DNA of 64,000 nt from Dudresnaya verticillata (Eukaryota): NCBI GenBank assembly GCA_977862235.1, contig OZ374560.1, positions 1,612,001 through 1,676,000 of the forward strand, read 5' to 3'. A program made the position numbers and the translations under genes. Numbering within the stretch: position 1 is the first letter of the stretch; each line of letters begins with the position of its first letter. Positions 9,541 through 64,000 of the stretch are shown here, piece by piece. The notes beneath the pieces are model-generated. The model was not told the origin of the DNA and searched no databases. It worked only from the letters and a program-made list of their open reading frames with translations.

Positions 9541-11181
9541 CTAGACATCAGCAGGCCCGCTTGGGCCTGCTTCATCCTCGTCATCTAGGCTAGACCCCTT
9601 ATCGACAGCGACCTCGAGGAGCTCCTCGTCGCTGCCGCGGATGGCAACCTCGGGAATTCCCGTCCTACGCAAATAGCCGATTACGGCAATCCGCTGACTA
9701 AAGCTCAACCTCACACGACGAGCGCGAGGCTGGCCCACGGGGTCAGGCGACGGCGGACGAATGGCTGGCGGCCGAACGATCGGCACGCTCGCAATAACAG
9801 GGCCGCTGCCGTCACCACTTGCCTCACCCGTTTCGGTCGATGTTCCCGCCGCCCCGTTCGGAGCCTCATCAGCCGGCGCGTCGACCGTCATCGTGTCATC
9901 ATCGGGATTTCCCCATTACTGCCCGCGTCGGAGGACTGTTCCTCATAATCCGACTCCGCAATGCCACCCGCCTCGGGGTCCACCAGGTAGCCTCGCGGCT
10001 GACCAGGCGGCATCGAACGCGGGTGGCTACGTAACCAAGCGGCACGGTCCGCAGCGACGAAAGTGCGTGTCCAAGGGTCAAACCATGCCCAATCGCCGCA
10101 AGACGGGTGCCGACGCCCAGGAGAGAAATTGGTCGATGAGGAACTCCTCTTGTTGTTGCACAACGGGACTCTTTGGTCGTCATGGTCCCAATCAACCTGG
10201 GCATAAAACCCCAACAACACGCGGAACTCCGCTTCGTTGTTAACTCCACCGAGGACAATCCTCAAGTCCAACTGCTCAACGAGCGTCAGGACTGTGGGAG
10301 ATATGTACCACATGCGGTACGTATCGTACAATTCCCACAGCCACTGAACGGCCGTCTTCGCCACGAACTCCGTGTAATACACCGTCCACAATCCCGACTG
10401 CGGGTAGCCGATAACGGATGACATGGTGTAACTCACCGCAGGAGCCAACTCGACGAGGAAACCCTCACAACACTCCACCAAGCCCCACTGTGGGACGGGC
10501 AGCCGCACATAACATCGATCACGATAAGTACGATAAATTGCGTCGATTTCGACATTAGGGTAAGGCACCAGGAAGCCCAGACGGGCTCTCCCAACGAATC
10601 TTGTCCCAATAAGCGTTGTTCTCGCGTTTGCGCACAAAGCGGAATTCCGCACGAAGCTGCACGCCGAGTAACAGGGCCGATTGACGCACCCTGGGCTCGA
10701 CCCCATCCCACGCATGCGGGATGGGGAGGTTCTCCAAGGCATCAGCATAGGGGATTTCCCCAACGGTGCGATAAACGCCGAGGTCAAGCCAGTAACCGTG
10801 CGGAATGACCACCCGACAGGGAGTGCGGGAAAGCCGCTGGAAGACCAAGCGGACATACCGCAACCTCGCCCTGCGTACGTCCTCCCCGCCGTGACGGCGG
10901 ATCCAATCGGGACGAATGGCGCCATGCCGACGCCAGTCGGGCGTCCTTAATACGCATAGGGGAAGGTCCCCCGGGAGGAAACCGTCTTCCGAGACATACT
11001 GCTCGATGAGGGCATGGTTCCCAAAGTTATTGTGGAACATCCACGGCGCGTTTGCGATGTCAATCAGGTCGCGCCAGGACGTCTTGCCCTCGAAGTCGGC
11101 TGGCGTAGGATACGATGCAGATGTCTGCGGAGCGCGCAAAAGCACGCGGTCTAGCTCCGCTAAGGAGAAGTTCGGCGGCAT
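9541..11181 (-). pseudogene. Antisense accessory ORF of element A (unknown conserved domain), two frameshifts
   Basis: ORF pieces 10555-11241, 9888-10925 and 9541-9891 join into a protein that aligns with 28971-31274 and 41982-43925. Shared motifs: GFLPG.LPL, IRWE, VPY, EGF.VEL.P, YTE.VA, WLWE.YDT.RM, CGDW...PWT. Confidence 0.88.
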
Positions 11182-11353: not shown

Positions 11354-12128
11354 TGTGGCGCAAATCGCCTTCGCTCTCTGTTGAAGAATTCTTCATAATG
11401 CAGCCAACAGCGGCTCGCGCGACCGCGAACGACGGACTCACCGCAGCCTGTTCGTGCGGATCAACCGCTGTGCGGGTGATTGAGCTCAGAGCCAATTTCT
11501 ACAATGAGCTCTGGCACCACGCGCACGCACCAGCAATGCTAATGGGGAAATGCCTCTGTAAGGCGCCCGGCCTGACAGTACGCGGCGCCCTCTGCCAGCA
11601 AGGATGGCCCCGCAACGCGACAACGCGTACACGTGCACACGTGCGCCTCCCTGGCGCGCATCTTTCAGCCGCACCACCGCTAGGCTGACAGTTGATATTT
11701 TTAGATAATTATAGAATTGTGCGCGCCACGTAATGCCAGGTGGCGCGCTCCCCTTCCACTACTTTAATCCGCCACCAAGGCGCACCCGCCTTCTACATAG
11801 TATAAAAGGGCCCTGAGGTGCGCCCTCATACAGTAAACGGCTAAGTTTGGGCCCAGCGAGACGTACCCTCCTACCCTATCGACTCCCTCTCTAGGCTGGA
11901 CTCCAGTACATCCGCTACCCTTCTTCATCGTACAGAATCCTGTTTTCTCTTGTTTTTCCCTTGTTTTCTCTTCTTTTCTAGGGTAACCCCCTTCCGCGGC
12001 CTTGTTGTGTTTTACAGTCGCACTACGGGGCTACTCCCCTGCTCTACCGCCACTACCTCACCTGCTACCGCCAGGCCCCCGAACCGCCTGAGGTGCACCC
12101 TCAATTCTACCGAGTGGGTTGCACCACA
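11354..12128 (+). repeat. 3' LTR of element A (~775 bp)
   Basis: Inverted termini TGTGGCGCAA...TTGCACCACA, TATAAAA at 11801, and a tail matching 1-72. Confidence 0.93.
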
Positions 12129-27560: not shown

Positions 27561-28454
27561 TGTGGTGCAAACGTCTGAGACGATAGACCGCCGAGCAGTT
27601 CGGGGCTCGGTGGGTAGCTGCGCCCGTGGCGGTGAGTAGCCTCGCCTTGGGCGACTTGTTGGCAGGGCAAAGGACACGCCTTGGGCGGACTGTAAACGCC
27701 CGAGGCGAAAAGGAAGGGAAAAGGAAACAGAAAGGGAACATGTCAATGACGATGGTAGACGTGGAAGCACGGGAGATAGACGCTTGAGCCGGAGGCAGCG
27801 GTAGGATGCACGCGTGCGGAACGGGGAAGTCTGGACCAAGGCCGGCTTGCCCGGGCGTTTACTGTTACGTCTGGGACGGCTTACCTAAGTATAGTACGGC
27901 GGCGGCGGTGCGTGTGCGTAGCGCGGGAACTCGGGACACGTGTCGTCCCGAGGCGCATCTGACAGATCACCCATCGCATGCAGCCGCGCGCCTGACAGGT
28001 TGCCGTACAACCCCCTGTGTGGGTGCTTACACGCACACGTGGACGCGTGTGCCTTACAGCCGTGCGCGCGCGCGTACTGTAGAGCGTGCGCCTTGGATAT
28101 AATCCGATACTTGTCCGATCCCGATCCCATCCGGATCGGGCCAGCAATGCGAATACCCGCAGCCTTACAGGCGCGTATCTTACAGCCCAGGCGATCCAGA
28201 TAGCCAATCTGGATACCGCATCCGGATCCCATCTGGATCCGTATCACAGTGCCCCGGGACGCCACGTCGGCCTATCACCGTACAGTGCCCGCGTGGCGCG
28301 CGGCACGCAGTGTGCGCGCGCGCCCCAGTGAGCCGTCGATGACGTGTTCGCGCGCCAACGGCGGTGGTGAGCGCCGGTGGCGGTTTCTCCGTCGGTCGAC
28401 GTATTTGGTCTGCCCGCTTTCAGCGAAAAAGGGCTCACCTCCCCTTGCACCACA
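27561..28454 (-). repeat. 3' LTR of element B (894 bp)
   Basis: TGTGGTGCAA...TTGCACCACA; differs from 39957-40847 by roughly a dozen substitutions and a 3-bp indel (counted by eye). Confidence 0.97.
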
Positions 28455-28970
28455 CGACCCCCGTCCAAAACGCGAACACGCCCGACCCTCAACCTGCTGC
28501 CGTGCGCCCTCCCGTTGCGTTACTGCCAACTGCCAACTTCCGCGCCTTGCGAACGAGTCCCCGCGCCTTCGCGTATTGTGTTGGTGCGCCCGCGTGCGCG
28601 TTGCGACCTCGGCTGTGCCGTAAGAACTTCGCTCTTGTTGCGTGCTTGTGTCTGTGCGACTGCGTTGACGCTGCCCCGACATCATTGCCCGTGGCGCATA
28701 ACGTTCTCCGTCGTTGACGTCTATCGTATATCCCTCGCCTGGGGCGTCGCAACTTAATCGTCATCGACGTCGTTTGCCTTTGGCATCGCCAGTGGCGCAG
28801 CAGCTGAACGTCGTTGAGGTGGGTTTCTTTTCCTCGCCTGAGGAGTTACAACCGTAATCGTCTTCGACGCACGCTTCTTGAAGCTTTCGCCAGTGGCGCA
28901 GAACACGAGTCGTCTTTGACGTTTGTACACGCATCGCCTTTGGCGTTAACATATTCTCGTCGTTGACGTC

Positions 28971-31274
28971 ATGCCGATGTTCAATGGCATGCAGGTGGCG
29001 GCGCCCTCGGCTGCGCCGGTGTACGCTTCGCCGGTCGACTTCGTCGGAAAGAACCCTCTCGATCACGCGCATTTCTTCGCGCGGGCCCCCTGGTTTGACC
29101 AGGAGGCCCTGTGCGAGGAAGAATTGGTTGCCCATTACGCTACTAGCGGTTTCTTGCCGGGGAGCCTGCCCCTCGGCGTCGTCTGGACGTTGGAATGGAA
29201 GTTACGCTGCGCCGTTCCTGCGGAATGGCTTTGGGTGCGAGCAGGACAGTCGCGTGCGGACGTCCACGCGCAGTTCGTCTCAGACGTGTATCGTCGCTTC
29301 ACGCGGTATCCGGGGTCGACGTTAACGCCGCCCCTGTTCAATTATGATGCGGGACAGTACCGCACAGCCGGCGAAGCCGAATATGGTTCTCGTCTTGGGA
29401 CGTTATCGCTCAAACACGTGAGCGTGTCGATTGAACCTCGCGTGTTGGGAGAGGCCTACCTGTTAGGCGTACGCTTGAAATCGGATTTTCGTTACTTGCA
29501 TCGTACGGGTACGTTCTTTTGGGAGCGTTGTATCCGGTGGGAGTGCGAGACGCGTCGCCGAAAGGGCGTATTCGTACCTTACCAGGGCATGCAGGTCGAT
29601 CGTATTGAGCGTAGTAAGTTACCGTTTTGTTTCGTGAAGGTACCGCCTGTATCGCGACAGTTTGAGATATGCGAGGGTTTCTCCGTAGAGCTTCCTCCGT
29701 GTGTCACGTATCTTGGTTCCGAGCTGATGACCGACCCCTATTCCAGGTACTGGATCGTGTTTTACACGGAGTGGGTCGCCAATGTGGCGTATGCGTGGTT
29801 ATGGGAGGTGTATGACACCTTCCGTATGTACCACTTGCCCCCGCGTGTGGTGGCTCAGCTTGGCAGCCTCGACTTGGTCGAAATATTGGGCGGGTACCGG
29901 AACGCCGAGGAGTTCTGGAACCTGCGCGCTGTGGCGGATGAGATCGATTTGAACGACCCGGCAATGGTGCCGTATGCGAACAACCGCCGTAAGGCGAACC
30001 GTCCGCGATTCGCGATGAGTCGGACTCACTCCGCCTGTGGCGATTGGGTCCATTATAACCCGTGGACTAAGCGTCGTACGACGAAGAATATTGCGGAGCG
30101 CCATCGCAAAACGGACCGCTTCACCCCGGGTAATCACCCGCGTGGTTTGCGTAAGAGCTGCGACTTTGTCGGTGAATTTCCTCCGCATTTGAGCGCCTCA
30201 ATGGCCGAGGAGGATGCGTTTAACGCCGATGGCGGACCGGAGAACCCGTCTGGGACGGACATTGCTGTGCCTATGGCGGTTGAGTCGACTGCCGAGCCTG
30301 CGCCCGCGTCTTCGGCTTTGCCCGGAGGCGCTGTCGGTGGCGGTGGAGTGCCAGCTGGCCTGCCAGCTGTTGCTCCTCTGCACCTCGCGGCCCCCGTCGC
30401 TGACGATGATGGCGATGCCGTTATGGCGACGCCAATATTGGAGTCGGCTCCGCCGACCGTGACGCCTCAAGGCGAAGCATCAAACGTCGCAGACAGTTCT
30501 GGGGGTCCAGCTTCGGTGCCGGTTTGGACCGAAGAACAGCGCCGCACCGTGCTTGCGTTATTGAAGGCTGCAGGCGTCGCTACTAGCGGTCTGAGCGGCT
30601 CACCCACTGAGTGGATGAGCCAAGCGTTGTCGACTGCGGTTCCACCTCAGGGTGGACCCGCACCGAAGTCGACTAGTGTCGTAGGTTCTGCGTCGAAGGA
30701 CGGTGTGGCAGAGATGCCTTCGTCGCCTAAGGCGAATGGTCCGGCGTCTAAAGACGTGAATATGACTGTACCGCCTGTGGCGAGCGAAGCGAATGCCGCT
30801 ATAGCGTCGTTGACGTTTCCAAAGGGGCCAGGGGCTCCTGCGTCCTTGACCGGTGTTGGGTTAACAGCGCCGAAGGCGAGTGAAGAAGCGACGCCAATCA
30901 AGGCGGTTTCTGAACTGACGCCAAAGGCGGTCGACGAGTCGTTGATTACGCTTAAAGCGGATGGGGCTGTGCCCGCACCTAAGGCGAACGATGGCTTGAG
31001 CTCTGCGCCCGTGGCGGTTGTTATTGCTTCATCGCCTTTGGCGGATATTGTCGCGACGACGCCGAAGGCGATTGATGAGTCGCCCATTTCGCCTGCGGCG
31101 CCTGTTATAGTCACTCCGGCAGTTGCGGTGGCAAGGCCTTTGCGGTCTGCCCCGGCTCCTGCCGTGAGTGTACCGTCGAGGACGGAGGACGACCTCTACG
31201 AAGAGGCGTTGCGTGATTCCGCCGAAGGCGCCGTAGGTGTACTACCCGATTCGTCTGCGACGAAAGAGTCTTGA
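28971..31274 (+). CDS. Antisense accessory ORF of element B, intact 767 aa: unknown conserved N-terminal domain plus low-complexity Ala/Pro/Ser tail
   Basis: Long uninterrupted ORF opposite to gag-pol, homologous to the ORFs at the same position in A, C and D. Confidence 0.9.
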   Translation: MPMFNGMQVAAPSAAPVYASPVDFVGKNPLDHAHFFARAPWFDQEALCEEELVAHYATSGFLPGSLPLGVVWTLEWKLRCAVPAEWLWVRAGQSRADVHAQFVSDVYRRFTRYPGSTLTPPLFNYDAGQYRTAGEAEYGSRLGTLSLKHVSVSIEPRVLGEAYLLGVRLKSDFRYLHRTGTFFWERCIRWECETRRRKGVFVPYQGMQVDRIERSKLPFCFVKVPPVSRQFEICEGFSVELPPCVTYLGSELMTDPYSRYWIVFYTEWVANVAYAWLWEVYDTFRMYHLPPRVVAQLGSLDLVEILGGYRNAEEFWNLRAVADEIDLNDPAMVPYANNRRKANRPRFAMSRTHSACGDWVHYNPWTKRRTTKNIAERHRKTDRFTPGNHPRGLRKSCDFVGEFPPHLSASMAEEDAFNADGGPENPSGTDIAVPMAVESTAEPAPASSALPGGAVGGGGVPAGLPAVAPLHLAAPVADDDGDAVMATPILESAPPTVTPQGEASNVADSSGGPASVPVWTEEQRRTVLALLKAAGVATSGLSGSPTEWMSQALSTAVPPQGGPAPKSTSVVGSASKDGVAEMPSSPKANGPASKDVNMTVPPVASEANAAIASLTFPKGPGAPASLTGVGLTAPKASEEATPIKAVSELTPKAVDESLITLKADGAVPAPKANDGLSSAPVAVVIASSPLADIVATTPKAIDESPISPAAPVIVTPAVAVARPLRSAPAPAVSVPSRTEDDLYEEALRDSAEGAVGVLPDSSATKES

Positions 31275-32553: not shown

Positions 32554-35500
32554 TTAGCCGCGTTGCGCGTCGTCGAAGTTTGGCGGCAGCTGCGTACGTT
32601 TGCGACGGTGGTATCGTGTGACGTGGGAGCGCGGCAAACTGGAGACTGGCTCCCAGGTCTTCGCGGAAGCGGGGTATCCAAACCACTTGACGCGGTAGAG
32701 GATCTCATCATCATCCGCATATGCGTGCGACTCTATGCGTTCAATCACGTATTCTCTTCCGCTCACAGCGTTCGGCTTGGACATGGGCCTGTCCAGCGCC
32801 TTTAGCGGTTTGTCTCGTTGCGTGATGGGTGTCTGTTCCGGCTCGGCGAAGCGTACTCGACGAGTTGATCGCCGAAGGCGTTGGCCTTGGGCCTCGGACG
32901 CTCGATCAGCGGTCAGTCTATTGTTGCGTCTTGAGACGAGTTCATCGCTTGCAGCGCCTTGCTTCGTGCTTGCACGGTTAACGTCTTCGTTATCGGACGC
33001 GCTTTCAGCGGAGTCATTGTTCTTATTCGGCGGTGCCGTAGCGACGTGTTCCAAACGGGTGCGAACCCCTGGGGTACTGTCGTCGTTGGAGACGGATTGC
33101 GAAGCGCGGTCGTTGGGATCGGCGGCGAAGGGCGAAAGCTCTGCCAACCCACGACTGCGTGACGCGGCGATCGTACGCTGTTGCGGATCTGTCGCAGTAT
33201 GCGAAGTGTCTGCGTCCTCTTCCGGGTCCGCTGGTGGCGTGCTTGGGGTAGTCGTCCCTTCCTCGGGTGACGTGGGGGCGACTGCTCCCTGCTTCTCAGG
33301 CGGGCCTGGTGGTACGACGATTGGAGGGGCCACCTGACCCGGTGGGGTCGGCGCCCAGACCACGCGGTCTCGGAACAAACGTTCCCGCTCATCACGTCCC
33401 TTGTCGACGGTTACTGTCTCGTTATCAACGTGAGCTACCCGGTATGGTCCGTCCGCCACTGGCGCCAGCTTATGCTTACGCTCTGCGCGATCCGTGCTCC
33501 CGTCTTGGACGAAGTATTCCTTACGTACGAATACGAAGTCGCCTACGGCGATTGTTTCCTTCGATTTCCTTAATCTGGTATCGAAGTTTCGTTTGTAACG
33601 TGCTTGAGTTTTTTCTAACGACGCTTTAGCGGTTCCCATCAGTGCGGCCAGCCAGGTTCGCCACTTGGTGTAGTATTGCCCCGCGGTGGGTACGCTTTCG
33701 AGCGACGGTTCCGCTTCGAGCGACAATGGTCGTGGTGGCTTCGACAGCACCAATTCAAACGGAGCGAGATGCGTAGACGAATGCAACTGCGTGTTGTATG
33801 CGAACCTCAAGGCATCTGTGAACAGGTCCCAGTCTCTCGGATGATCCGCAACGTAGTGACGCAGCGAGGCCAGGATAGTTCGATTGAATCGTTCTACCTG
33901 GCCATTGCATTGCGGATGGTACGTCGTGGTGAAGAGATTCTCCACTCCCAAAAGACGGCAGATATCCTGAAACAGCTTAGCCACGAACTGTGGTCCGTTG
34001 TCGGACAACAGTTTCTTGGGGGGGCCGTACACGAAGACCCAATGTCGTACAAACGCCTTAGCGATCTCCAATGCCATAATACTACGCAGTGGGACCGTCC
34101 GGACCAGCTTCGAGAAGCGGTCCACAATGACGAGTAGGAACTTGTTTCCTCGCTTCGTGCGTATGAGTTCGCCCAGGATGTCGATCGATACAAATTCGAG
34201 AGGCTCGGCTGCCAGGAACAACTTCAATTGCTTGGTGTTCTTTCGTAGTAATACGCGATTCTTAGCGCAAGTTACGCAGTTGCGGACGGTCGCATAGCAG
34301 TCCACTGGCATCGATGGCCAATAGTATTCGCTTCGAAGCGTATGATACAACTTACGCCCCCCTGGGTGCCCTGCCAACTTGGCGTGGTGCCGGAGGTGGA
34401 GTAAGCGAGCGCGTAACGCGAAGGGTACGACCACTTGCGGACGGACTTCCACTGTTCGGACCAACAGGCCCTGTTCATCCGTTGCGAACGGTAAGATGAT
34501 TCCGTCATCCAGACGTTTCTTGACATCGTTACAGTATTTGTCATCGCCTTGGGCGTGTGCCAACTCTTCATGCGTCACTTGACGAAGGAGTACCTCATCC
34601 GCCGGTGGCGTGTTGTTGATCAACACTTGGTCGAACTCTTCGAACTCTCGTTCGGCGAAGTCGACCTCGCCTTCGGCGTGTGAGAGATCGTCTTGTGACG
34701 TTTGATGGCCGTCTTCGACGTAGCTTCCGTGATAGCACGGTATATCATCGTCAATGGGCTCGACGGTTTCTCCCTTCGTCTGTAGACGCGAAAGGGAATC
34801 TGCCTGAGTATTCAGGTACCCCTTTTTGTACTTCACGACAAAGTCGAACTCGGAAAGGCGAAGGCGCCACCGCATTAACCGTCCTGAGGGGTCGCTGATT
34901 TCCATCAGCCACCTCAACGAAGAATGGTCCGTATGGAATGTGAACGACTCCATCTGGAGGTAAGGTCGCAGCGTCATGACGGACCATACTACTGCGAGGC
35001 ACTCCTTTTCGGAGACCGAATAGTTACGCTCTGGAGCGGTGAACGAGCGGGACCAGAAGCCGAGCGGCTTACGTTCGCCGTCGGGCTGCGTTTGAAAGAG
35101 AGCGCAGCCGACCTGATACTCGCTTGCGTCACAATCGACGGAATAGGGGAGACCCTGCTGTGATAGCGCCAGAATAGGCGCATGAGTCACGGCCTCGACG
35201 AGCGTACTGAACGCTTTGGCTTGTGTCTCGTTAAACGGTTGTAACTGGAAGTCCTGTTCCTTCCTCAGCAACTTGTTGAGGGGGGCAGCGACATGCGCGT
35301 ATCGCGAGACGAACCGTCGGTAGACGTTACAAAGACCTAGGAAACTCCGTAGCTCCTTCTGATCCCGTGGATGCTTGGATTCGCGTAGCGCGGCAGTGAC
35401 AGTTCGGTCAAGGTCTAACCGTCCTGGACGTATGACGTGTCCTAATTTGTTGACGGTCGGGGTGAAGAAGTCACACTTAGTCAACTTCAGAGTCACCCCG

Positions 35501-37124
35501 GCGCGGTGCAATGTCGAAAGGATCTCGTCAACATGACGGAAGTGACTGTCGATGTCGCTGAAGAAGATTTTTACGTCATCGAGGTAGACGAGGCACGAAC
35601 GCCACTTGTAACCAGCGAGCAGTATGTCCAACGTTCGTTGAAACGTAGCGGGTGCGTTCGTGAGACCGAATGGCATACGTTTATAGCGGAACAGTCCGGC
35701 GTGGCACGTGAACGCAGTCTTATCGCGGTCTCGCGGATTGATCGGCACCTGCCAGTACCCACTGTTACATTCTAGGGTGGTGAAGACGTTTTCTTCCCCT
35801 AGACTGTCGATACATTCGTCGATATGCGGCAGCGGGTACGTGTCCCGTATGGTTACTGCGTTTAAACGACGGTAGTCTACGCAAAAGCGGAGGGTCCCGT
35901 CCTTCTTGGGGGCGAAGACCACTGGTGACGCCCACGGCGATTGTGCGGGTTCGATAACCCCTTGACGCAGCATGCGGTCCACTTCTGCTTGAGCGAGTTG
36001 TCTTTGCTTCGGCCCCGCTCGGTAGGGCGGGGACGATATCGGTCTAGATCCGGGAAGCAAGTCGATGTAGTGCTCCGTGGTTGAGATTGCTCCCAACGAA
36101 CCGTCCCACATAGACGAATACTTGCGTAACATCTCCTTAAGCCGACCTTGATGCTCGGTGGGGATATGTACCAGGTCCAAATCGTCTACTGACGGAGTTT
36201 TGGCAGTGGTTACCTCGATAGACTTCTTGAAGGTATCCGGCTGTGCCGTAGTGTTATCATTCGTTTGAAAACGGAAATCTTGGTTTGCCTTCTCCTCCTC
36301 GGCCTGTTCCTCTGTGAGGCCCAAAACATCGGCAAGACTTACGTGACTGGGGAACACTGCTGTCAGATGTGGTAACGCCGTCGCGACGACTTGGCCTTTG
36401 GCCAGTGCCTGCGGGCGGGGAGAGAAGTTGGTAACCAGAATGCGAAACGCTTTTAGCGGCTCCACTTGAGCAATCCCGTTTGTAACGGCCAGACCTTGTT
36501 TGTCGTACAGCGTTCCGAACGGTTGAATTGTGATGATGCCGGCGCGCTCGGTGGTCACCGATACCCATTGCTGCGCCTTAGGCGGGATGACCGCGCGCTC
36601 GGCGACTCGGATCTTGGGTGACGTCCTCCCTTCGGCCTTGCCGTATTCCTGTTCCGTTGGTAACGGAGGGTACGACGGGGGTCGGCGCAGCGGCGGCGCG
36701 TTATAGGGATGCGAGTCCCGTCATCCAATTCAACCTCGCGACTTCGCGGATATATTGCTTCGACAAAGCGGTCGCAAAAGTCGCAGCCGAGTATAACCGG
36801 CGCAGCGAGTTGTTCGCAAACGATCAGTTCCAACTTGACGACTCTCCGTCCTAGACGAACGACCAGGTCGATGGTGCCTCTTGTCTGGATCGTCTTATTG
36901 TTGGCGTCGGCTATGACGGGGAAGCTCTTTGCCACGATGCGCGATCGCGCTTCCAGCGGAATGTCGTCAATGCGAATGAAATTCGGACCAGCCCCCGTGT
37001 CGAGGACAGTGCGTTTACGTGCCAAGGTAGTAATGGTTGCGCCCAAATCGGCGTACACCTTATAGTTACTCTTGGCCATTACGAACAACTGCCCTCGCGC
37101 CTGGGGGGCTGGTACCTTCGCCAT
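32554..37124 (-). pseudogene. pol: Pol of element B (protease frameshifted from a 1334-aa RT-RH-IN-chromodomain ORF)
   Basis: VLDTGAG, YLDD, DCDAS, HHCC, SDNG/GQVERFN, GPYRV and chromodomain EYVIERIESH...VKWFGY...TWEP. Confidence 0.95.
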
Positions 37125-37269
37125 GGGCGTTTTAATGACGTCTGTGGCGCCTCTATCCGCCCGTTGGCATCATCGGTAACTAACTCCGGGCCCTCCTTCC
37201 GTGTCAGCACCCGAGGCCTAGGCCTCTCTTCGCGGTGCGACACCCCAGTGTCAGGATCTGGTGCCCGAG

Positions 37270-39875
37270 TTAGTTTTTCGCCTGAGGCGGTGGTTGTGGC
37301 GCTACATAGCGATTGATCATCGTCGGATGACGTTCTGCCGCGTGCGGCATGGGTCCGCCTCGTGGCGATTGTGGTCTTGCAGCACGGCGAGCAGCGTTGC
37401 GGGTCGTGCGTTCCTTGCAATGTACATACGCATCAGCGGGGACACCAGCCTTCTCGGCTTCGGTTAGTCCTTCATAGTTGGTAATAACCTTCATGAAGTC
37501 GCTCATGCGGAGGAAGCAGTCCGGCGCGATGTGTCCGCGGGCGTAGCATTGGTGGCATACCAGCTGCCGACGCGCGTCTTGACGGGGCGGGCCTCTGTTG
37601 TGCCATCCGGGCCTTGCTCGGTGAACGTAAGGAGCATACTCGGAATAGGGGACGCGTGGCGCGGGTACGACTGAGCGCCCAAAGGCGAGAGCGGGGTCCA
37701 TATCCCTTTCGTCTTCGTCATCGACGTAGCTGTCCGTCGGTAGAGCCGAGGTTGGCACCGACGCTTGTTCGTCTGCCAAGTACAGATCGCCTTCGGCGTG
37801 TGTTTCCATGTCATCGACAGGGCGGCTAACGTCTCGGAACTCGACGGAGGACTCCGCTATCATAGCGCGCGCTCCAGGCTTGGCGCCTCTCGTCTGTGGA
37901 CGCAGTACCCCTCGGGCATCGCCGATGGCGGATCGCGGTGTGCGTACGGCTTGAGCCGGTGTCAGTAGGTCACGTCGTGCTGACGCGGAACCGGCTCTGC
38001 CGTGTCGTGCGCGGTTGGCATCCTCTTCGTCCTGTGCGAAGTGGACCAGCCGCTCAAATGACAACTCCGCCCTTGGCGTTTCTTCTCGGAAGCGAGCGAC
38101 CAGGGACCTGATCGACGGGTCTAACCCGTCGATGTACAGCGTCATTTTTCCCAATCGGGATATACGTTACCGCAACGAATACACGCACCGGCTAGCCGCA
38201 TCCCATAGCTCTTCTCGTCCTCGCCTTGCTTCTGGGCAGTCGACCGTAGGGCGAGGACAGCGTCCCTGATCGCCGCTGGCGTAGCATACGTACGGAGGAG
38301 GTACTGTACCGCCTCCGGATACGAAGACACCCCGCCGCGATGGCGAGAAGACGTCGACTTGACGGAGCGGATTTGCGTGGCTGCCGTACCTCGCAAGAAG
38401 TACGGCAGTGCGACGAACGCTTGGGCTTCGCTCATCTCCAGCGTATCGGCTTCATCCGCGTAACGCCTCAGGAACTCGAGGACCATGATGAGGTCGCTGC
38501 CGTTGAAGGCGGCGTCCTTCATGGTCAGCTCCAAGCGCTTAATATGGTCCTTGACCTTACCCGTATCGCGCCCTGAGTGTTTTTGCCCTACGTCTTTGAG
38601 ACGGTAAGTCCTGTACGATAATAACTGATCGAAAAGGGGGTTGGAGGGGCGTAGCTCCTTCAACCCCTTGAACCGCTTTCCGCGAGGTCTTGCGGCACTG
38701 CCGAGAGTTGGGAAGTCGTCGTCCTCAGACGAAGAGTCTGATGACTCTCCGTCACTTGACGAGTCCGAAGAGGACGAGGATGAGTCCCCGCGTCGATGAC
38801 GGTTCTTCTTCCGTCTCTGACGCAGCTTGCGACGGCGTCTCTTCCGATCCTTACGTCTGTGACGATCTTCGCATGAGCTCTCGTCGCCCGACGGTGGACC
38901 GTTGCGCCACTTGGCGGCTTCGAGACGCTTTAAGCCAGTCGCAAGTCGCTGAAAGCGTTCGCGTGAGCTAAGCTCGGAATGCGAATGAACCGTTACTGCC
39001 GGCGGTGGTTGTGTACCCTCGCCTTGGGCGTTTTGGTTCGTCAGTAGACGGTCGAGGTCGGATCGAAGTCCTTGTCGGGCGCCGTTTCGATCCTCTTCCA
39101 GCGTCTGTAGACGACTTGCGATTCCTCCGACACTGTCGTCCAGCAACCCGGCGAATCGAGCGAGCATCGCATCGTCCTCTAAGACACACACCTCTCGGAT
39201 CCGTTCGCGTGGTATCGTTAAGTTACTCACGCGGACGGCCGAGGGTGACGCCGTTGGCGGTTGGCTTTCGCGGTTTGACCGGTCGGGCGTCCCTTGCGCC
39301 CTTTGACTTGGCGAATTCGGCTTAGCCGGTGAACAACCGGCACTGCCGTGGGGAGTGGGGCAACATGCCCCGTGTGTCAATGGTTTGTCAGCGACGTTGC
39401 GCTCCGCGGAGTGCCCTTGATCCTCGTTGACGGGGAAAGTTGGTTGATCCGGAAGTTCCGGTTGTCCCTCGACAATGTCGGCTTGTGTTCCGTCTACGAT
39501 GCCCTGTTGTTCGGCTTGTACTGTATCAGCCGAGTCAACGTAGGAGCGGTAGGTGCGGAGGGCCGATCTCTCGGGGACTGAGGTGCGGATGACGACGGGG
39601 TTGCGCGTCGGCGGGGGAGGTAACTCTCCTCCGTTGAGCGACGCGTGGGAGCCTGCGTGGCCGTGGCCCGGGGTAGCGTCGGGAACGCCGACGCGATCTC
39701 GGGGCTCACGAGGCGCCCAGACCTCGTTGTCATCCGCTGTAGCGACCGTTCTGACGCGGGTACACTCCCAGGCGTCGAACACGGTCTCCTTGAACTTGGG
39801 CCTCGCGACGGCGGCGGTCGTGAGGCCATGATACAATCGTAGAGTTGCTTGAACGTCGTGGACGATTAGCGACAA
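37270..39875 (-). pseudogene. gag: Gag of element B, frameshifted near 38150
   Basis: LLSYRTYRL, YPEAVQYLLRTYA and CCHC CHQCYARGHIAPDC. The true start is uncertain. Confidence 0.88.
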
Positions 39876-39938
39876 ACGTCTGAAGACGGAGAGTCGGACG
39901 TCGCACGACGGAGTAACTCGTTGAAACGTAGCACAATT

Positions 39939-39954
39939 CTAGGTCGGGAGACCA
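39939..39954 (-). promoter_or_regulatory. Primer-binding site of element B
   Basis: The reverse strand reads TGGTCTCCCGACCTAG 2 nt inside the 5' LTR boundary. Confidence 0.88.
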
Positions 39955-39956
39955 GA

Positions 39957-40847
39957 TGTGATGCAAACGTCTGAGACGATAGACCGCCGAGCAGTTCGGG
40001 GCTCGGTGGGTAGCTGCGCCCGTGGCGGTGAGTAGCCTCGCCTTGGGCGACTTATTGGTAGGGCAAAGGACACGCCTTGGGCGGACTGTAAACGCCCGAG
40101 GCGGAAAGGAAGGGAAAAGGAAACAGAAAGGGAACATGTCAATGACGATGGTAGACGTGGAAGCACGGGAGGTAGACGCTTGAGCCGTAGGCAGCGGTAA
40201 GATGCGCGCGTGCGGAACGGGGAAGTCTGGACCAAGGCCGGCTTGCCCGGGCGTTTACTGTTACGTCTGGGACGGCTTACCTAAGTATAGTACGGCGGCG
40301 GCGGTGCGTGTGCGTAGCGCGGGAACTCGGGACACGTGTCGTCCCGAGGCGCATCTGACAGAGCACCCATCGCATGCAGCCGCGCGCCTGACAGGTTGCC
40401 GTACAACCCCCTGTGTGGGTGCTTACACGCACACGTGGACGCGTGTGCCTTACAGCCGTGCGCGCGCGCGTACTGTAGAGCGTGCGCCCTGGATATAATC
40501 CGATACTTGTCCGATCCCGATCCCATCCGGATCGGGCCAGCAATGCGAATACCCGCAGCCTTACAGGCGCGTATCTTACAGCCCAGGCGATCCAGATAGC
40601 CAATCTGGATACCGCATCCGGATCCCATCTGGATCCGTATCACAGTGCCCCGGGGCGCCACGTCGGATCACCGTACAGTGCCCGCGTGGCGCGCGGCGCG
40701 CAGTGTGCGCGCGCGCCCCAGTGAGCCGTCGATGACGTGTTCGCGCGCCACCGGCGGTGGTGAGCGCCGGTGGCGGTTTCTCCGTCGGTCGACGTATTTG
40801 GTCTGCCCGCTTTCAGCGAAAAAGGGCTCACCTCCCCTTGCACCACA
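39957..40847 (-). repeat. 5' LTR of element B (891 bp)
   Basis: Direct repeat of 27561-28454. Confidence 0.97.
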
Positions 40848-40852
40848 GGAAT

Positions 40853-41611
40853 GAGGGTCGCAACCAACACAACCCACGAGTCCAACGTGGAAGGGTAGCC
40901 GCGGTGACGCGTGTGAGCGCGTCGGTGCGTGGTAGGGTAGAGCAAGGGGAAGGCCCCACTGTGCGGACTGTAAACACACACCAAAGCCCGTGTGAGCACG
41001 CAGTGAGCCAGAAGGTGGGGGAACCGGCACAACAATCGTGTGAACACGAAGGTAGAAAGGTGTCAGCACCACAGGCGTACGTAGCCCAGCTCCGCGATGG
41101 CTTCACTCGCCAAACGCACGGAGGTAGGGGGTACCCTAAGTGTGGAGCCGAAGCTTTTTTGGGTTTGCTGTAGGAAGTCGGTCCTAGCCCCTTACGTCCC
41201 ACCGCCGGCGGCGGCGTCGCGGCGGTGGCGACTAGGGCTACTGTACACTAGCAAATAGACTAACACTAGAGTACAATAAACTAACACTACAATAGCACAG
41301 TGTACCTATTGTACACCGACACCAGCACGCTGTAAGACTTGTAATGACGCGTGCCGTGCGCGTGTGCACGTGTCACGCGTGTTGCGCGTGTCTTGCGCGC
41401 GCTTGCGTGGCGGTGGCTGTAAGGCGGGTGCGGCCCTGTAAAGGCGACGGCGGGGGAAAGCCCCGGGGGCGGGGGCGGGCCCGCTATGGTGGTTGACCAC
41501 TGGCCAATGGGTGAGCCCAACTTGGCGGTGCGCGTCGCGGACGCGCGTGATCGCGCGGTCGAAAAAGGGGCTATCAAGCCGCTCTGCGGGGAGCCCGGGC
41601 GTTGCACCACA
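40853..41611 (-). repeat. Major part of the 3' LTR of element C
   Basis: Direct repeat of 53992-54750, flanked by a C8 run (reverse-strand PPT GAGGGGGGGG) at 41612-41621. Confidence 0.95.
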
Positions 41612-41871: not shown

Positions 41872-43925
41872 ATGCCGCAGTACAACGCCGATGGCAGCTT
41901 ACTGCTTGGGGGTGCTGTCATCAACGCCCCGTCGAAGCAGGTATCGTTTCCTGCTCCAAATGATTACTTGGAGAAAACCCGTTGGAGCATCCAGGGCTGT
42001 TCGCGAGGGCGCCCTGGATGCATCCTCAAGACGTGGATAACCACGAAGTGCTGGAGTTGTACTCCCATAATGGCAGGTTGCCTGGGGATATCCCCTTGGA
42101 TGGCGTCGATCGCAACAGCTGGAAGCTGTACGGCGCCATGCCCGCGTCATGCGTGCGCCGGTGCGGTCATGAGACGGCGTCGCACGCTCGGGCGTCCTTC
42201 GTGAAGCCCACGCATCAGCGTCTCTACCGGCTGCCGTGCAGCGTGCCGGTGGAGTACGAAGTGGAGGTAGACCTCATGTTCTATAGACAAGATGGGGATA
42301 TCCCCTATGTGTATCGTCTGCTCGACCGACCACTGCCCCCGGCGTGGCGAGGGGACGTCACAGATATTGGAGACGACTCCTTGTTTGGGGGGCAGCGGTT
42401 GATGGCAGAATTCCGCTACGTTCGCAAGCGGGATTACCCGTTCTTCGACCGGTGCATCCGGTGGGAACGTGAGGCCCGGCAGCGCCACGGCGTGCTTGTT
42501 CCCTACCAAAACGTAGAGATCGAGCGCGTCCGGCGCGACGTCCTGCCGCGCCTGTACGTGCGCTTCCCACCAGGTTGGGCCCAGTCGGAGTCGCCCGACG
42601 GCATGTTTGTGGAGCTTCCTCCCGTCCTGCCCTACAAGGGCAAGGACTTAATAGACGATTTGGGTTCACCCTTTTGGCGCGTGTTCTACACGGAGTGGGT
42701 GGCGAAGTTTGCCGCCTCCTGGCTGTGGGAGTGCTACGACACCTGTCGCATGTGGTACCTCCCCGCCCCCGTGTTAACACGCTTTAACAGGATTCCCCTG
42801 CGCCATGTTCTCGGGAGTCGTGCTAGTGCACAGGAGTTCGACTCCTTGCTAAACATTTACGGTACGATCGACTGGGACGATCCCGGCGACGTGCCGTTGG
42901 CAAACCGGAGAGCCGGAAGAGCGCAGGGTACTTCCCAGAGGCGTGACCGCCGGAACCTTGCACCTGGTCGCCGCCACAATGCGTGCGACGACTGGGTGTG
43001 GTTTGACGCGTGGACGCGTGGGTTTCTGGACGCCGACCAGGCGGCGTCCTTGCGCAGTCAGCGACGGGAAATCCCGAGAGGCCACTTGCGTGGTTGGGTC
43101 TTTTCACCAGATGTGGTGCCGCCGTTTCAGGCGGCCCAACACACCGACGCGGATGTCGCGGCCGAGTCCGATCAAGAACTGGGTTCACCCATGGGTGAGG
43201 ACGCCCTCAAGCCTGCTACCGGTGTGGTAGCCGATGAGGCCACCAACACTGGCGGCGCGTCGGACCTTGCCGTCGTGCGCCGCTTCCTCTTGGAAGCGGG
43301 CGTCGTGGCGGTGGGAGATGCGGTTACACGTGAGGATCTGCTCGCGCGTATTCGCGGCACCGCCCAAGGTGGACCGTCCACAGACATAGGGGTGAGCCCC
43401 AAGCAGGTCGTAGCGGGTCAGGCTAATCCTGCCGCTAACTATGAGGACGCCGGGGGCGATACGGTATCGCTGAGCGAGCCGACCCCGGCGTCGGCGCTGC
43501 CAGCAGGTGTGCCTGCTTGGATGGCACAGGGGTTATCCCCGATTGGGCCCAGTGGTGTCGTCATCCCCGCAGCCGTCGCGGCGGCGAACATCGCACGTCG
43601 TGGGCGGGTGGGGGCGGCGGCAGCTTCTGCTGCTGGTAGCGCCAAGTACGGGGAGATCCCCAAGAGTACGGGTGCTCCCGTTGCGTTGGCCGAGAAGTCC
43701 ATGGCGGCCCCGTTGCTGCGCAGCCAGCCTCCCCCTGACCCACGCGGTGAGCGTAAAGGAACCGGCGACGCGCAGGCGGGAGCGGGGGACGTCGAAATGG
43801 CCGACGCGGGTGATCCCGATGCGGTAGGGGCGACGGCGTCACCTGACCTAGACTATTGCGTCGAGGTCGAGGGTGACGCCGCGGCGGCAGAGGACCGCGA
43901 TCTGGTAGACTACGGCGACCTATAG
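41872..43925 (+). CDS. Antisense accessory ORF of element C; one apparent frameshift near 41980
   Basis: MPQYNA...APSKQVSFPAPNDY (41872) continues in another frame as LEHPGLFARAPW... in the 647-aa ORF 41982-43925. It has the same motif series as A and B. Confidence 0.87.
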
Positions 43926-53965: not shown

Positions 53966-53971
53966 GAAATG

Positions 53972-54750
53972 TGTAGTGCAACCCTCCGAATAAGGGTCGC
54001 AACCAACACAACCCACGAGTCCGACATGGGAGGGTAGCCGCGGTGACGCGTGTGAGCGCGTCGGTGCGTGGTAGGGTAGAGCAAGGGGAAGGCCCCACTG
54101 TGCGGACTGTAAACACACACCAAAGCCGTGTGAGCACGCAGTGAGCCAGAAGGTGGGGGAACCGGCACAACAAGCGTGTGCATACGAAGGTAGAAAAGGT
54201 GTCAGCACCACAGGCGTACGTAGCCCAGCTCCGCGATGGCTTCACTCGCCAAGCGCACGGAGGTAGGGGGTACCCTAAGTGTGGAGCCGAAGCCTTTTTG
54301 GTTTTACTGTAGGAAGTCGGTCCTAGCCCCTTAAGTCCCACCGCCGGCGGCGGCGTCGCGGCGGTGGCGACTAGGGCTACTGTACACTAGCAAATAAACT
54401 ACCACTAGAGTACAATAAAATAACACTACAGTAGCACAGTGTACCTATTGTACACCAACACCAGCACGCTGTAAGACTTGTAATGACGAGTGCCGTGCGC
54501 GTGTACACGTGTCACGCGTGTTGCGCGTGTCTTGCGCGCGCTTGCGTGGCGGTGGCTGTAAGGCGGGTGCGGCCCTGTAAAGGCGACGGCGGGGGAAAGC
54601 CCCGGGGGCGGGGGCGGGCCCGCTATGGTGGTTGACCACTGGCCAATGGGTGAGCCCAACTTGGCGGTGCGCGTCGCGGACGCGCGTGATCGCGCGGTCG
54701 AAAAAGGGGCTATCAACCCGCTCTGCGGGGAGCCCGGGCGTTGCACCACA
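53972..54750 (-). repeat. 5' LTR of element C (779 bp)
   Basis: TGTAGTGCAA...TTGCACCACA; matches the split copy at 27541-27560 plus 40853-41611. Confidence 0.95.
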
Positions 54751-54987: not shown

Positions 54988-55587
54988 TGTGGCACAACGG
55001 CGATTTGCGCCAAGTGGGCGTATTACGCTGTAAGCCGTAACGGGCCAATGCCCTGTAAGACGTTGTCATTGCTGGGCTTTGCCAGGATGTGATATGTGAT
55101 TGGCGCCTGGCGCGAAATCACCCGCGCCTTAGACGCGCAATTGGCGCACGACCATTGGTGTGGCGCTGGGATATTTCCTGATTATACGCCGCCACAGGGG
55201 CGTGAATCCGCCTCCCATTGCTCAATGTAATTTGTGTACAGTACACTCTATTGGATAGTATTAGCACGGGCACAAGCCCTATTTATTGGTCCCCTGAGTA
55301 GCAGGGCACCGCTGATTGAACCCCACGGGGCGTTTCTCGGTCTTGGCCATTTTCTGGATTCCGGGCGCTTCCCGTTCCCTTTCTGGACGCCAACTACAGG
55401 CTCGTCACCGTAGGGCAGGTTCCCTGCGGATTACCAGGTCGCGTCCCCCTTTTCCTTTTCTCTTTTCCCTGGCCTAGCGCCATTCTACCAAGCCTCTACC
55501 ACACCCGAGCTACCCGTGAGCACGACGGTTCCGGACAGGTGTCCTTTGTTCTTTTTGCTCTTCCTGGGCTGGACCCGTTGTGCTACA
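54988..55587 (+). repeat. 5' LTR of element D (600 bp)
   Basis: 13-bp inverted termini TGTGGCACAACGG...CCGTTGTGCTACA (1 mismatch), followed by the PBS. Confidence 0.88.
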
Positions 55588-55588
55588 T

Positions 55589-55602
55589 TGGTCTCCCGAC
55601 CT
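55589..55602 (+). promoter_or_regulatory. Primer-binding site of element D
   Basis: TGGTCTCCCGACCT lies 1 nt after the LTR. Confidence 0.85.
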
Positions 55603-56168
55603 GGAAGTGTTCTGGGTTGGTTTCCCCTTTTCGTCCTCAACCCTGGTTGGTTAACTCAACGAGTACAAGACTCAAGACGTTATGTCGTGTCAAAGACGAG
55701 TTTCCCGGCCAACCGGTGTTGTCAGGATTTTTGACGGTTTCTACGCTCCATCTCAAGCCGCTGAGTAGCGTCAAATCAGTGCCGAGCACGTTTATTCTTG
55801 GAAATACAACCGGCCCTAGTGGCCATTTAGAAGTTGCCGTTGAGGGCGTGACTGACGCCCCCCTCAAGACTGCTTCGACAGGTTATCGGTGCATCCTGGT
55901 AAAACACCGTCCTTTTGTACAGGCCGTGCCAGGGCACAAGTTGGAGAGTCCTTTTGGGGAAATCGCTAGTAGCCCTGAAGTCTAGCAAGGCTTACGTACG
56001 AGCGCCGTGCTCAAGCTGGAAAGGATTCCCCTTCGACGCATCGTCTCGTGCGAGAAAGACTTACGGAACGCCGGTTGGCGCATCAGGAAAAAGTTCCATC
56101 GACCCACTGGTCCTTCCGGAATTATTACCTATTTTGTGACGGGCTATTAGTCCCATGCCATCGGGAAG

Positions 56169-58930
56169 ATGCCGACATCGAATGGCGATACAACTAGGCC
56201 GACCCTCATCGGCCATGGTGGCAGTCGTGCCGGAAGTCTTTCCTCCGTCCGTATTTCGGGCGTTACCACCCGTTCAGGGACTGCTGCGCTAAGGCGCAGC
56301 CCTTCGGACGGACGATTGGGGCGACGCCATATCGACGGCGACGCCCCCGATGAAGACGGTCCCGAACCAAGATCAAACCGCGAACGACCCCCATTGGTTG
56401 GAAGTTCTAGGCCCGACCTTGTTCTCGGGACTACTCCCGGTTTAATGCCGAACCCTGGAAGGGATTCGGCCACGTTAGAAGGAAACATGACCCGGTCAGA
56501 ACCGCAACCATCCACACAAGTGGATGGGAATGAGGACCAGGGTCCAGAAGTGATGCCGGAATCAGGTCGACTCCCCAGTGGACGATCGACCGATTACGCG
56601 GCACCGACAGAGGTCGACTCGGCGCCCGGATATGGGCAGCCGACCCGAACGAATACCAATTCGGAGGATGTCCGATGCTTTACGGAATCGGAGATCCACC
56701 GAATGGTCGCTGATGGTGTTGGTCACCTTGTAGCGACCCAGATCAGACCGCTTGCCGCAGCACAGGCTGATGAAACGCTCACATGTGTAAAATGCTAAAT
56801 TGACGAGTCAGCCGGTCGCCGAGATGAGCGGATACTGACCTTGTGTCAAGAGGAAATGACCGGCCACATCCGCCACTCCGATACAGGACAGAGAGTGGCG
56901 CATGAAATGGAATCACTCGATGCGAGGATAGAATCGCTCCTGGAGCGGGTGGAAACGATCCACGGAGATTTTGAGTCCCTCACTCGAGTAGTGGACCTCT
57001 CACGGGAAGAAGCATCTGGCGCAATTCGGACCCTTCGTCTCAATGGGAATGACGCCACGTGTGTAGAACAGGACCGAGCCATTGCCTCTTAAGGAAGGAG
57101 TTAGCCGACGAACGGCGTCGGATCAACATAATCGAGACTCGTTTCCAGTTATGCCTTCTTGAGAAGAACTTATCTCCTGAAGTGGAGCGGCGCCGGAGTC
57201 CGGTGCCAAAAGGGACTCGAGACAGGCGATGTCATTCGCCGAGACGAGACTCCGATGTGGAATCGGTACACAACCATTCGGATGCTGACAATCCGCGCGC
57301 TGTGCATTCAGGTTGCAGAACCTGCCGTACGGGCCGAGGGACTGAATCCCGTCGAAACCGGGATGAACCGCGTCGGTCGGCACAGCGGCGTCGACAGCAG
57401 TTCTCCGAAAAGGATAGTTCCCCACCGAGGCGTCCATCGCGCCCCTCTTGGCGAGGACCTAGACGTTCGGACGTTAAGGAGCTTGCTCCGCAGAACTCGG
57501 CTTTCATTCAGGTTCTCTCTTATCGACGCTATCATCTGTTGAACCTGGACCAATACAGGGGTCCAGAAGTCACTGAGGACACGTCGAAAAAGATCAAGAG
57601 GATCAAGTCCGTGATGAAGAGTCGCAAGTTCGACGGAAGCGGACCAGTTGCGATCATTGGCTTCTTAGCCGCTTTGAAGCGCCAACTGGACCAAGCCAGG
57701 ATAAGCGAAGGAGCGGCAATTCTTGTGCTCCCCGAGTTGCTAGATAAGGATGCTCGAGACATGTTCGAAGCCAACTTCGACGTGGCCGGAGATGATAATG
57801 GAGGATTCTCCGAGTGGCCCGAGGCCGTAAATTACCTCCTACGCACATATGCGAAGGATGTGTACATCGAGAGGATAGCCTCGGAAATGGACCGTATGGC
57901 ACAAGCCGAGGATGAGGACGAAGTGACCTTCTCACGAAGCCTCCAGAATAAGGCTCGAAAGCTCGCGGGTGTGTATACAGAACAGGATCTGATTACCCAG
58001 TTCGTCCGTGGGCTCTTGCCGGCCACAAAGCCGTTACTGAGCAATTCGGGTTTGGACCCACGAACGGCTAGGCCGACTATGTGGAACTGGCTACTGCCCA
58101 AGGTGAATCGCATCGGGCCCTCATGGGCGCTGGTCGTCGAGAGCGTGTCTCTGGTACTTCGATGTTGCGACGAAAGTCCTCCATTAAATCCAAGAAGACC
58201 GGCCGGGCGCTACTGGTCAGGCAGGGACGTCCCAACACTGAGATCGCGTCAAGTGACAGTGGTGGCTCTACAAGGACTAGCTCCGATTCTGAGGACGCCG
58301 TGGTGGCGGCCATCGACATCCAAGCGCCGGATTCGTCCGTAACAACTTCGGGCGTCTGGTACACAGCCCCTTCTGACGCTACGGACAGCTATTATGACTC
58401 CGTCAGTGCGGTACTATCCAACCAGAATCCGAGGCTTCCCTCGTGGGCCCAACCATCTCGCACACAGCGTCCCGGCTGGTTAGTGGTGGAGGATAGGCCG
58501 AATGACATCTGCTTCGACTGCCTGGGTATAGGGCATAAAACGCCCAATTGCCCATATCTGGCACGAACAGACGAGCGCGGCTTCTCACAGATACTACGTA
58601 ACCACTACAACCAACTCTCTAGGGAGCAACGGGAATGGCTGTCCATCGTGGGCCGTTCGACATCATTCGCGAATGAGATGCGTCCCTCGGATCCAGGTCC
58701 TCAAAATTCACGTCGACATTTCAACGAGGGAACGATCAGCCCTCAACCGGAGAACAGGGGGCACCCCGAACTGCAGGTTCCCAGGTGCAGTTCACAGAAA
58801 CGCTCAAACACCCTGTGGATAGGCCGCGGAGTAATCCCCGCTCTCCTCGCCTGAGTGGCAGACCGTTCCCACCTCCTCCGCCTTTACCGGCATCCCCATC
58901 AGCAAGAAACGACCATGTGCCGAAATGCTA
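56169..58930 (+). pseudogene. gag: Gag of element D, disrupted
   Basis: VLSYRRYHL, EWPEAVNYLLRTYA and CCHC CFDCLGIGHKTPNC across ORFs 56169-56798, 56841-57092, 57059-58342 and 58081-58854. Confidence 0.82.
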
Positions 58931-63705: not shown

Positions 63706-64000
63706 AACGTCAAAGACGAAAATATGCTCGCGCCGCTGGCGACGAGTGTACAAACGTCAAAGACGACTCGTGTCCTGCGCCACTGGCGAAAGCTTCACGA
63801 AGAGTGCGTCGAAGACGATTAATGTCCAACGCCACAGGCGATACAAACAAACCTGCGCCACTGGCGAAAGTCTTACAAACGTACGTCAACGACGTTCTGT
63901 TGCAACGCCCCAGGCGAGGAAAAGAAACCCACGTCGACGACGTTCAGTTCCCACGCCACAGGCGATACACATAGAAGACAACGTCGATGACGATTGAGTC

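Follow-up and report, generated by a model that had tools for sequence, protein, structure and literature searches.

An antisense accessory protein family and family-specific palindromes in chromodomain Gypsy retrotransposons of Dudresnaya verticillata

A stretch of 64,000 nucleotides from Dudresnaya verticillata (GenBank assembly GCA_977862235.1, contig OZ374560.1, positions 1,612,001 to 1,676,000), referred to here as the window, was analysed, and positions are counted from its first letter. It consists of four long terminal repeat (LTR) retrotransposons, named A, B, C and D, and 15.4 kb of host DNA. Each element carries an additional gene, the accessory gene, on the strand opposite to gag-pol, and each is tiled with short perfect palindromes, the form of which differs between families. 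We describe the gene, its protein and the palindromes, and consider whether the protein may read the palindromes of its own family.

The accessory gene and its carriers

From a sequence-only reading of the window, a gene antisense to gag-pol had been proposed to lie between pol and the 3' LTR in A, B, C and the B-like part of D. The open reading frame (ORF) search and tblastn bore this out, with matches in A (11154-9990, 33-40%, E 1e-65), C (41964-43214, 36%, E 6e-74) and D (63705-61417, 66-87% identity); the position is that of the antisense ORFs of Retand-type elements. All four copies start with Met-Pro and the motifs listed in that reading align in order, as it had stated. It was also right that the B copy is intact; each of the other three is interrupted by frame breaks, stops or both, which leaves B as the only intact one. 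The B frame is open for 767 codons, with a stop-free run of 774 against a maximum of 388 and a median of 191 in 1,000 local shuffles. The start codons had been placed inside the 3' LTR, but they lie internal to it, about 170 (A), 260 (C) and 517 (B) bp away.

The carriers have the organization of Ty3/Gypsy elements. Gag, protease, reverse transcriptase (RT), RNase H and integrase follow in this order between the LTRs of B, with Pfam domains in that order in B pol, and the best solved relative is Ty3 Gag-Pol (E 7e-111). RT, RNase H, integrase and a chromodomain were matched in B pol at 32554-36132 (-), to which the accessory ORF is antisense. TG...CA LTRs, a primer-binding-site (PBS)-like sequence, a polypurine tract (PPT) and a 5-bp target duplication are also present. 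The chromodomain (PF00385) follows the integrase in A (E 3e-11) and B (E 4e-8) and was located by tblastn match in C and D. By the chromodomain criterion alone A-D are putative chromoviruses, and a chromodomain is by itself insufficient for that status, as chromodomain Gypsy lineages also occur outside chromoviruses (PMC12477816).

A, B and C had been described as divergent families. They represent three families of one lineage, since their Pol proteins are 67-72% identical and they have the same LTR ends and the same PBS-like sequence. The PBS-like start TGGTCTCCCGACCT is common to all four elements (positions 75, 39954, 53965 and 55589). Its primer may be tRNA-Tyr; an Rfam scan and a tRNA scan gave no match. 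B is nested 20 bp inside the outer end of the 3' LTR of C and is flanked by a GGAAT target duplication, whereas the target duplication of C matches at four of five bases. D is composite. Its gag and protease belong to a more distant lineage, 31-37% identical to A, B and C, and a B-like 3' half comprising chromodomain, spacer and accessory gene begins at about 59790; no RT, RNase H or integrase core was found in D within the window. D may be a recombinant non-autonomous element, the product of a deletion between nested elements, or an assembly join.

The accessory protein belongs to a large family without a name

A single-sequence word search with the accessory protein gave no match, and earlier profile searches retrieved two and then five ENA clusters, all without names. 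A profile made from the window copies and the five unnamed ENA homologues was searched against 1.84 billion representatives, clustered at 50% identity. This revealed 1,455 clusters at E<=0.001, 644 at 1e-10 and 138 at 1e-30. Pairwise identity ranges from 18 to 80% with a median of 31% (63 near-full rows of a 150-row alignment). Among metagenome, viral and prokaryote contigs, no locus of a homologue could be confirmed.

The sequence-only reading did not recognise the domain, in agreement with our database searches. At E<=1, Pfam assigned neither B nor C to a family, and at E<=0.001 it assigned none of 59 homologues, the longer ones among about 155. Transposase_28 (PF04195), the plant mobile domain (PMD, PF10536) of the Ogre extra ORF and the VANC domains (DUF1985/DUF287) of Mutator-like DNA transposons, which had been suggested for comparison, were thus not matched. 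Searches of PHROGs and NCBIfam with eight sequences gave nothing below E 0.16, and sequence and profile searches of the PDB with the core gave nothing below E 0.2.

Residues 14-400 of B, folded with the 150-row alignment, were modelled as one compact, mostly helical domain with a predicted local distance difference test score (pLDDT) of 92 and a predicted template-modelling score of 0.91; the model from a 6-sequence alignment had a pLDDT of 33. A Foldseek search using the pLDDT-92 model revealed no match at E<=0.001 in the PDB and BFVD, and VIA-align against 48,161 chains gave a best Z of 2.6 and none at Z>=5. These searches, confined to the PDB, BFVD and the VIA-align chains, barely covered model residues 100-140 and 346-387. 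The core possibly has a new fold, of which blank fold searches are no proof.

Forty-three residues are conserved in at least 80% of the rows, including eight Arg, four Trp and four Tyr; the other conserved types are Pro, Gly, Leu and six Asp/Glu. Arg content is 38-47 per approximately 370 residues of core. The maximal 19-residue hydropathy is 0.4-1.4 in the cores (1.0 in that of B) and 1.62 in the Ala/Val tail of B. As had been proposed, the protein is not env-like: it is encoded antisense, its core contains no hydrophobic stretch, and the sense orientation, signal peptide and transmembrane helix of an env protein are lacking.

The conserved acidic residues (D126, E135, E191, E232, E267 and D358) and the partly conserved His389 would suit an enzyme or a host-interaction factor with no connection to the palindromes, for instance a component of the particle or a modifier of chromatin or nucleic acids; the palindromes would then stem from another activity of the element or the host. 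Algal and other retrotransposons do carry modifying enzymes (PMC6338049). However, neither Pfam nor NCBIfam matched an enzyme family and the alignment contains no Cys/His metal cluster in the core, and we regard this explanation as improbable.

The region behind the core had been described as a divergent low-complexity tail. This is correct for most of it, but a second module of about 35 residues, two helices by pattern with the consensus V..FL...G......G....EL...V, is kept in all four window copies. After iteration it was found in 31 of 62 homologue tails, two of the 31 being seeds, and in 0 of 62 reversed tails. Two of 14 members matched the Ish1 profile, with a best E of 0.041, weaker than the cut-off. 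The module may resemble the HeH (SAP/LEM/Ish1) fold. Against the PDB, it retrieved a repeat protein named E8 and otherwise weak matches only.

The core is under purifying selection

The ratio of nonsynonymous to synonymous divergence (dN/dS) was calculated with a custom Nei-Gojobori script. For the 402 codons of the B-D core, dN/dS in the antisense frame is 0.157 (bootstrap 0.10-0.22), and identity at the three codon positions is 0.91/0.93/0.73. The tail gave 0.41 and four other frames gave 1.4-2.7. The opposite-strand frame that shares third positions gave 0.26, but contains 12-14 stops. The core, approximately 380 residues, is under purifying selection. The ratio, run on B versus D only, is not near 1 and, with the 1,455 related clusters at low median identity, agrees with the proposal of an old, selected accessory protein.

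Core identity among A, B and C amounts to 38-45%. Core dN is 0.58-0.72 and Pol dN is 0.23-0.27, so that the core appears to have been inherited with the lineage while evolving faster than Pol. Synonymous divergence among A, B and C is saturated (dS 1.8-3.5), and their dN/dS ratios were not relied on.

Palindromes tile each element in a partly family-specific form

Each element is tiled from LTR to LTR, including spacers and coding sequence, with perfect palindromes of 4-bp arms. There are 138 sites of the word CGxy-N3-y'x'CG in B, 118 of xGxG-N4 in C and 34 of GxGG-N5 in A, compared with three B-type, two C-type and no A-type sites in the 15.4 kb of host DNA; the classes were defined from the same data in which the sites were counted. 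A count of 4-bp-arm pairs that was unbiased by spacer gave 191 observed against 51 shuffled for loop 3 in B and 214 against 64 for loop 4 in C. In A, 140, 122 and 102 pairs were observed for loops 4, 5 and 6, against 45-48 shuffled, and no loop length in the host exceeded 75 observed against 60 shuffled. The most frequent words are CGCC/CGTC-N3 in B and the 3' half of D, GGGG/CGGG/GGAG/GGTG-N4 in C and GAGG/GCGG-N5 in A.

The excess extends into coding sequence, where it is about 6-fold over synonymous-codon shuffles (B, 51 vs 8.6; C, 25 vs 3.4; A, 26 vs 4.1) and was reached in none of 300 shuffles for each of A, B and C. In aligned genes, palindrome positions coincide between families 0-1 times, as expected by chance. 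Family specificity of the words is partial: B is distinct, and A and C overlap in part. The sequence-only reading had overlooked this tiling, which offers the strongest hint at what the accessory protein does.

The arms co-vary as base pairs. Perfect arms were found in 125 of 248 CG..N3..CG frames in B (24 expected from shuffled arms), in 109 of 216 in C (18) and in 34 of 40 in A (13). The variable pair is Watson-Crick in 86 B sites, against one and four of G-U type, and in 55 C sites, against none and two; G-U-type pairs show no excess over background on either strand. Stems continue past 4 bp in 36 of 191 B cases, which is not above chance. Spacers are AT-rich (0.60-0.71, against 0.40-0.44 in flanks), loop composition is mirror-symmetric in A and C, and no GNRA or UNCG loop occurs among 108 C sites. 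Between B and D, 27 of 344 arm positions and 27 of 129 spacer positions differ; 24 sites are unchanged in both, 27 are perfect in one copy only and 10 were left out for gaps.

The densest palindromes lie directly before the accessory start, 12 in 295 bp in D and 10 in 516 bp in B. There they are spaced by about 24 bp, with CGTC and CGCC words alternating. The repeats in the tail of the B protein are also encoded by palindromes, and 12 of these 13 share a single codon phase. Strictly perfect arms free of G-U-type pairs would likewise be produced by template-switch correction of near-palindromes during reverse transcription, which would make the palindromes a functionless mutational by-product. 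We consider this very improbable, as the arms end at 4 bp, the spacer length and fixed pairs differ among elements whose RTs are 67-72% identical, and the regular array was retained in both B and D.

Two local repeats also contain palindromes. The A spacer at 8093-9218 contains five ACGGAA(T/A)TCCG palindromes inside longer degenerate repeats, and the C gag region at 53362-53524 contains three 51-bp repeats, each with a C-type palindrome at its centre.

A candidate reader of the palindromes

Such tiling calls for a reader specific to each family, and the most promising candidate is the accessory protein, because it has a soluble Arg- and aromatic-rich domain that diverges faster than Pol, because the densest arrays precede its start in B and D and its tail repeats are encoded by the words, and because in composite D the B word tracks the half that carries the gene (28 CGYC-N3-GRCG sites, against none in the 4,410-bp gag-protease half). 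We tentatively propose, giving it somewhat less than an even chance, that the accessory protein is a nucleic-acid-binding, VANC-like cis-acting regulator that reads the palindromes of its own family and keeps the family active.

The gene would be transcribed on the opposite strand from the 3' end of the element; the sequence-only reading had proposed an antisense promoter in or near the 3' LTR. The core would bind the 11-13-bp palindromes, for which DNA dyads or small extruded hairpins are the most likely form; both are favoured by the strict arm pairing without G-U excess and by the AT-rich, largely strand-symmetric spacers. Binding to the dense array before the B and D start codon may provide autoregulation. 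By coating the whole element, including the LTRs, the protein may counter host silencing, a role that reading had also considered, or promote transcription in a family-restricted manner. Protein and words would evolve in step, a pattern known from VANC proteins and their motifs in VANDAL transposons.

Several observations weigh against this proposal. A has no site in the 170 bp upstream of its accessory start, and the three sites in the corresponding 260 bp of C equal its average density. Words are shared across families: A and C both contain a G..G-N4-C..C class (39 and 26 sites), and the coding sequence of A has an excess of B-type (13 vs 4.5) and C-type (16 vs 3.7) sites. Accessory, Gag and Pol similarities all give the same grouping, with A closest to C, and motif similarity therefore cannot single out the palindrome reader. 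The elements compared all carry the gene, so that no gene-less relative serves as a control, and the six conserved acidic residues leave room for an enzymatic role. No compensatory arm change within a class was found among the 24 perfect sites shared by B and D. Furthermore, co-variation of base pairs is not what a simple dimer with one half-site per subunit would impose; the strict co-variation points to recognition of a paired structure, a small hairpin or cruciform, and not of two independent half-sites.

The remaining contrary observations also favour the main rival explanation, in which the palindromes are small hairpins of RNA or single-stranded cDNA read by Gag/nucleocapsid or RT as dispersed, family-specific packaging or folding signals, and the accessory protein has a separate job. 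RNA stems are predicted to pair more strongly on the gag-pol strand, at 0.44 vs 0.23 for the first 60 sites of B and 0.61 vs 0.33 for 31 sites of A, and the loops of B are skewed towards the base A on this strand (0.70 vs 0.60, p 0.002). The distant gag half of D, whose native 3' half lies outside the window, has a palindrome excess of its own (spacer 4, 56 vs 18; spacer 5, 42 vs 20). Pairing co-variation of the arms and the spread of sites over the whole genomic RNA also suit such signals. However, RNA hairpins fit less well with G-U pairs at background level on either strand, the lack of GNRA/UNCG loops in C, the mirror-symmetric loops of A and C, stems that pass 4 bp no more often than by chance, and a densest array directly next to the antisense start codon of B and D. 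On balance we think this explanation unlikely.

The accessory protein itself may bind the words as RNA hairpins, in the manner of Rev/Rex or of a silencing suppressor, and protect or export the genomic RNA. The soluble Arg- and aromatic-rich domain, the co-variation and the sense-strand stem preference are consistent with this, and a similar role has been proposed for the Retand and Tekay extra ORFs (PMC11963269, PMC11728184). Against it, the arms pair strictly by Watson-Crick rules with no G-U, and the loops have no conserved sequence; the probability of this alternative seems small.

The proposal of a DNA-reading regulator can be extended to a self-recognition system, in which the antisense-encoded protein, with a possibly new fold, would read, about every 100 bp through LTRs and genes, a code of mini-hairpins with 4-bp stems, set by spacer length and fixed pairs and not by a linear word, and would serve each family as a private activator or shield. 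Judged from the sequences, this extended form is rather doubtful, and less probable than the regulator itself.

Relation to known systems

The closest precedent for the gene position is provided by the antisense ORFs of Retand/Tat elements (TRP28 = Transposase_28, PF04195; Grande, RIRE2; PMC11963269), which also lie between pol and the 3' LTR, are conserved across families, have repeats in the region and have been proposed to encode a DNA-binding regulator. In contrast, the carriers here have chromodomains, and the protein has a conserved domain of about 380 residues that matches neither Transposase_28 nor any other Pfam family; whole-element palindrome tiling is unmentioned in the accessible text of that source. 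HTLV-1 HBZ and HTLV-2 APH-2 (via PMC11963269) are likewise antisense genes at the 3' end of an LTR retroelement, but no sequence relation to them was found.

VANC proteins of VANDAL Mutator-like transposons bind family-specific motifs (PMC5735166). The resemblance lies in an accessory protein that combines conserved domains with variable stretches rich in repeats, and in short motifs that occur in arrays, are enriched in their own family and differ between sister families; here B is distinct, and A and C partly overlap. However, the present carriers are Class I elements and not Mutator elements, and the protein has no Pfam match. VANC motifs are described in the same source as non-palindromic and mostly in non-coding DNA, whereas the words here are co-varying palindromes that run through coding sequence.

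In red algae, the Plavaka/Mutator transposons have accessory genes, PAG1-3, which stand by inverted-repeat arrays and have been proposed to bind their own element (bioRxiv 10.1101/2025.02.11.637652). The arrays adjoin PAG3 genes, and PAG1 is given as of unknown function. These are genes of DNA transposons, and PAG2/PAG3 have methylase, SET, ParB-like and oxygenase domains, none of which Pfam matched here.

The sequence-only reading held that chromoviruses typically encode only gag-pol. This is too strong, because the Tekay chromovirus clade has conserved extra ORFs (PMC11728184). The Tekay ORF resembles ours as a conserved extra ORF of about 400 residues in a chromodomain Gypsy lineage, but it is 5', sense and largely disordered, whereas ours is 3', antisense and predicted to form a compact domain. 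In REXdb, extra ORFs are recorded for 3,372 Ty3/gypsy elements and fall into 314 groups, of which 21.4% have a domain match; its accessible text does not mention red algae (PMC6317226). In the literature searched, to which Repbase, NCBI nr names, subscription journals and bioRxiv supplements did not belong, no description of the accessory protein or of the palindrome tiling was found. Antisense 3' extra ORFs are thus a known kind; what appears to be new is the accessory-protein family in that slot, coupled in place with a family-specific palindrome code.

Other features of the window

The coordinates of the features are given in Table 1. C and D sit in a remnant of a pogo/Tc5-like DNA transposon, with a weak HTH_Tnp_Tc5 match at 26771-27298 (E 0.055). 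The only clear host gene is a single-exon gene with a fasciclin domain at 21321-22019 (E 8e-9). A putative fragment of a non-LTR reverse transcriptase lies at 25401-25835 (-). Degenerate 65-87-bp repeats with an AG microsatellite occupy 15485-15793. The spacer of C between pol and the accessory gene contains a 45-bp tandem array (3.7 copies, 44357-44522) and a GC-rich array of 11-bp units (44073-44206).

Table 1. Coordinates of the elements, accessory genes and palindrome arrays in the window
Feature	Position	Strand	Remarks
Element A		+	5' LTR truncated at window start, ends at 72
Accessory gene of A	9541..11181	-	One frame break near 10590
3' LTR of A	11354..12128	+	
Element B	27561-40847	-	LTRs 98% identical to each other
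Target duplication of B	27556-27560 and 40848-40852		GGAAT
3' LTR of B	27561..28454	-	12 B-type palindromes inside
PPT and region upstream of B accessory start	28455..28970		10 B-type palindromes, the last ending 2 bases before ATG
Accessory ORF of B	28971..31274	+	767 residues, intact; antisense to gag-pol
Core domain of B	29010..30170	+	Arg/Trp/Tyr-rich, mostly helical in model
Two-helix module of B	30528..30641	+	
Protein plan of B			Core, residues ~15-400; acidic Ala/Pro linker; two-helix module, residues ~520-555; PKA-repeat tail
gag, protease and pol of B	32554..39956	-	RT, RNase H, integrase, chromodomain; 64 B-type palindromes
5' LTR of B	39957..40847	-	98% identical to 3' LTR; followed by PBS-like site
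Element C	27541-54750	-	LTRs 97% identical to each other
3' LTR of C, main part	40848..41611	-	Outer 20 bp at 27541-27560, split by B
Accessory gene of C	41872..43925	+	Broken near 41950-41963, open from 41964
5' LTR of C	53970..54750	-	97% identical to 3' LTR
Element D	~54988 to past window end	+	3' LTR outside window
5' half of D	54988..59790	+	Own LTR, PBS-like site, gag, protease
Accessory gene of D (B-like)	61414..63705	-	In-frame stops, several frame breaks
Array before D accessory start	63706..64000		12 B-type palindromes, ~24-bp spacing

Significance

Extra ORFs of LTR retrotransposons are common, and almost none has a known function (PMC6317226). Here, an unnamed family of more than 1,000 clusters comes with a candidate target, and because this candidate target differs between sister families, reciprocal binding assays offer a direct test of function. 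Work on it would also bear on the structure of a large protein family without a solved member. Whichever protein reads it, the co-varying palindrome tiling is unexplained, and it would bear on how numerous retrotransposon families that share a genome distinguish themselves from one another.

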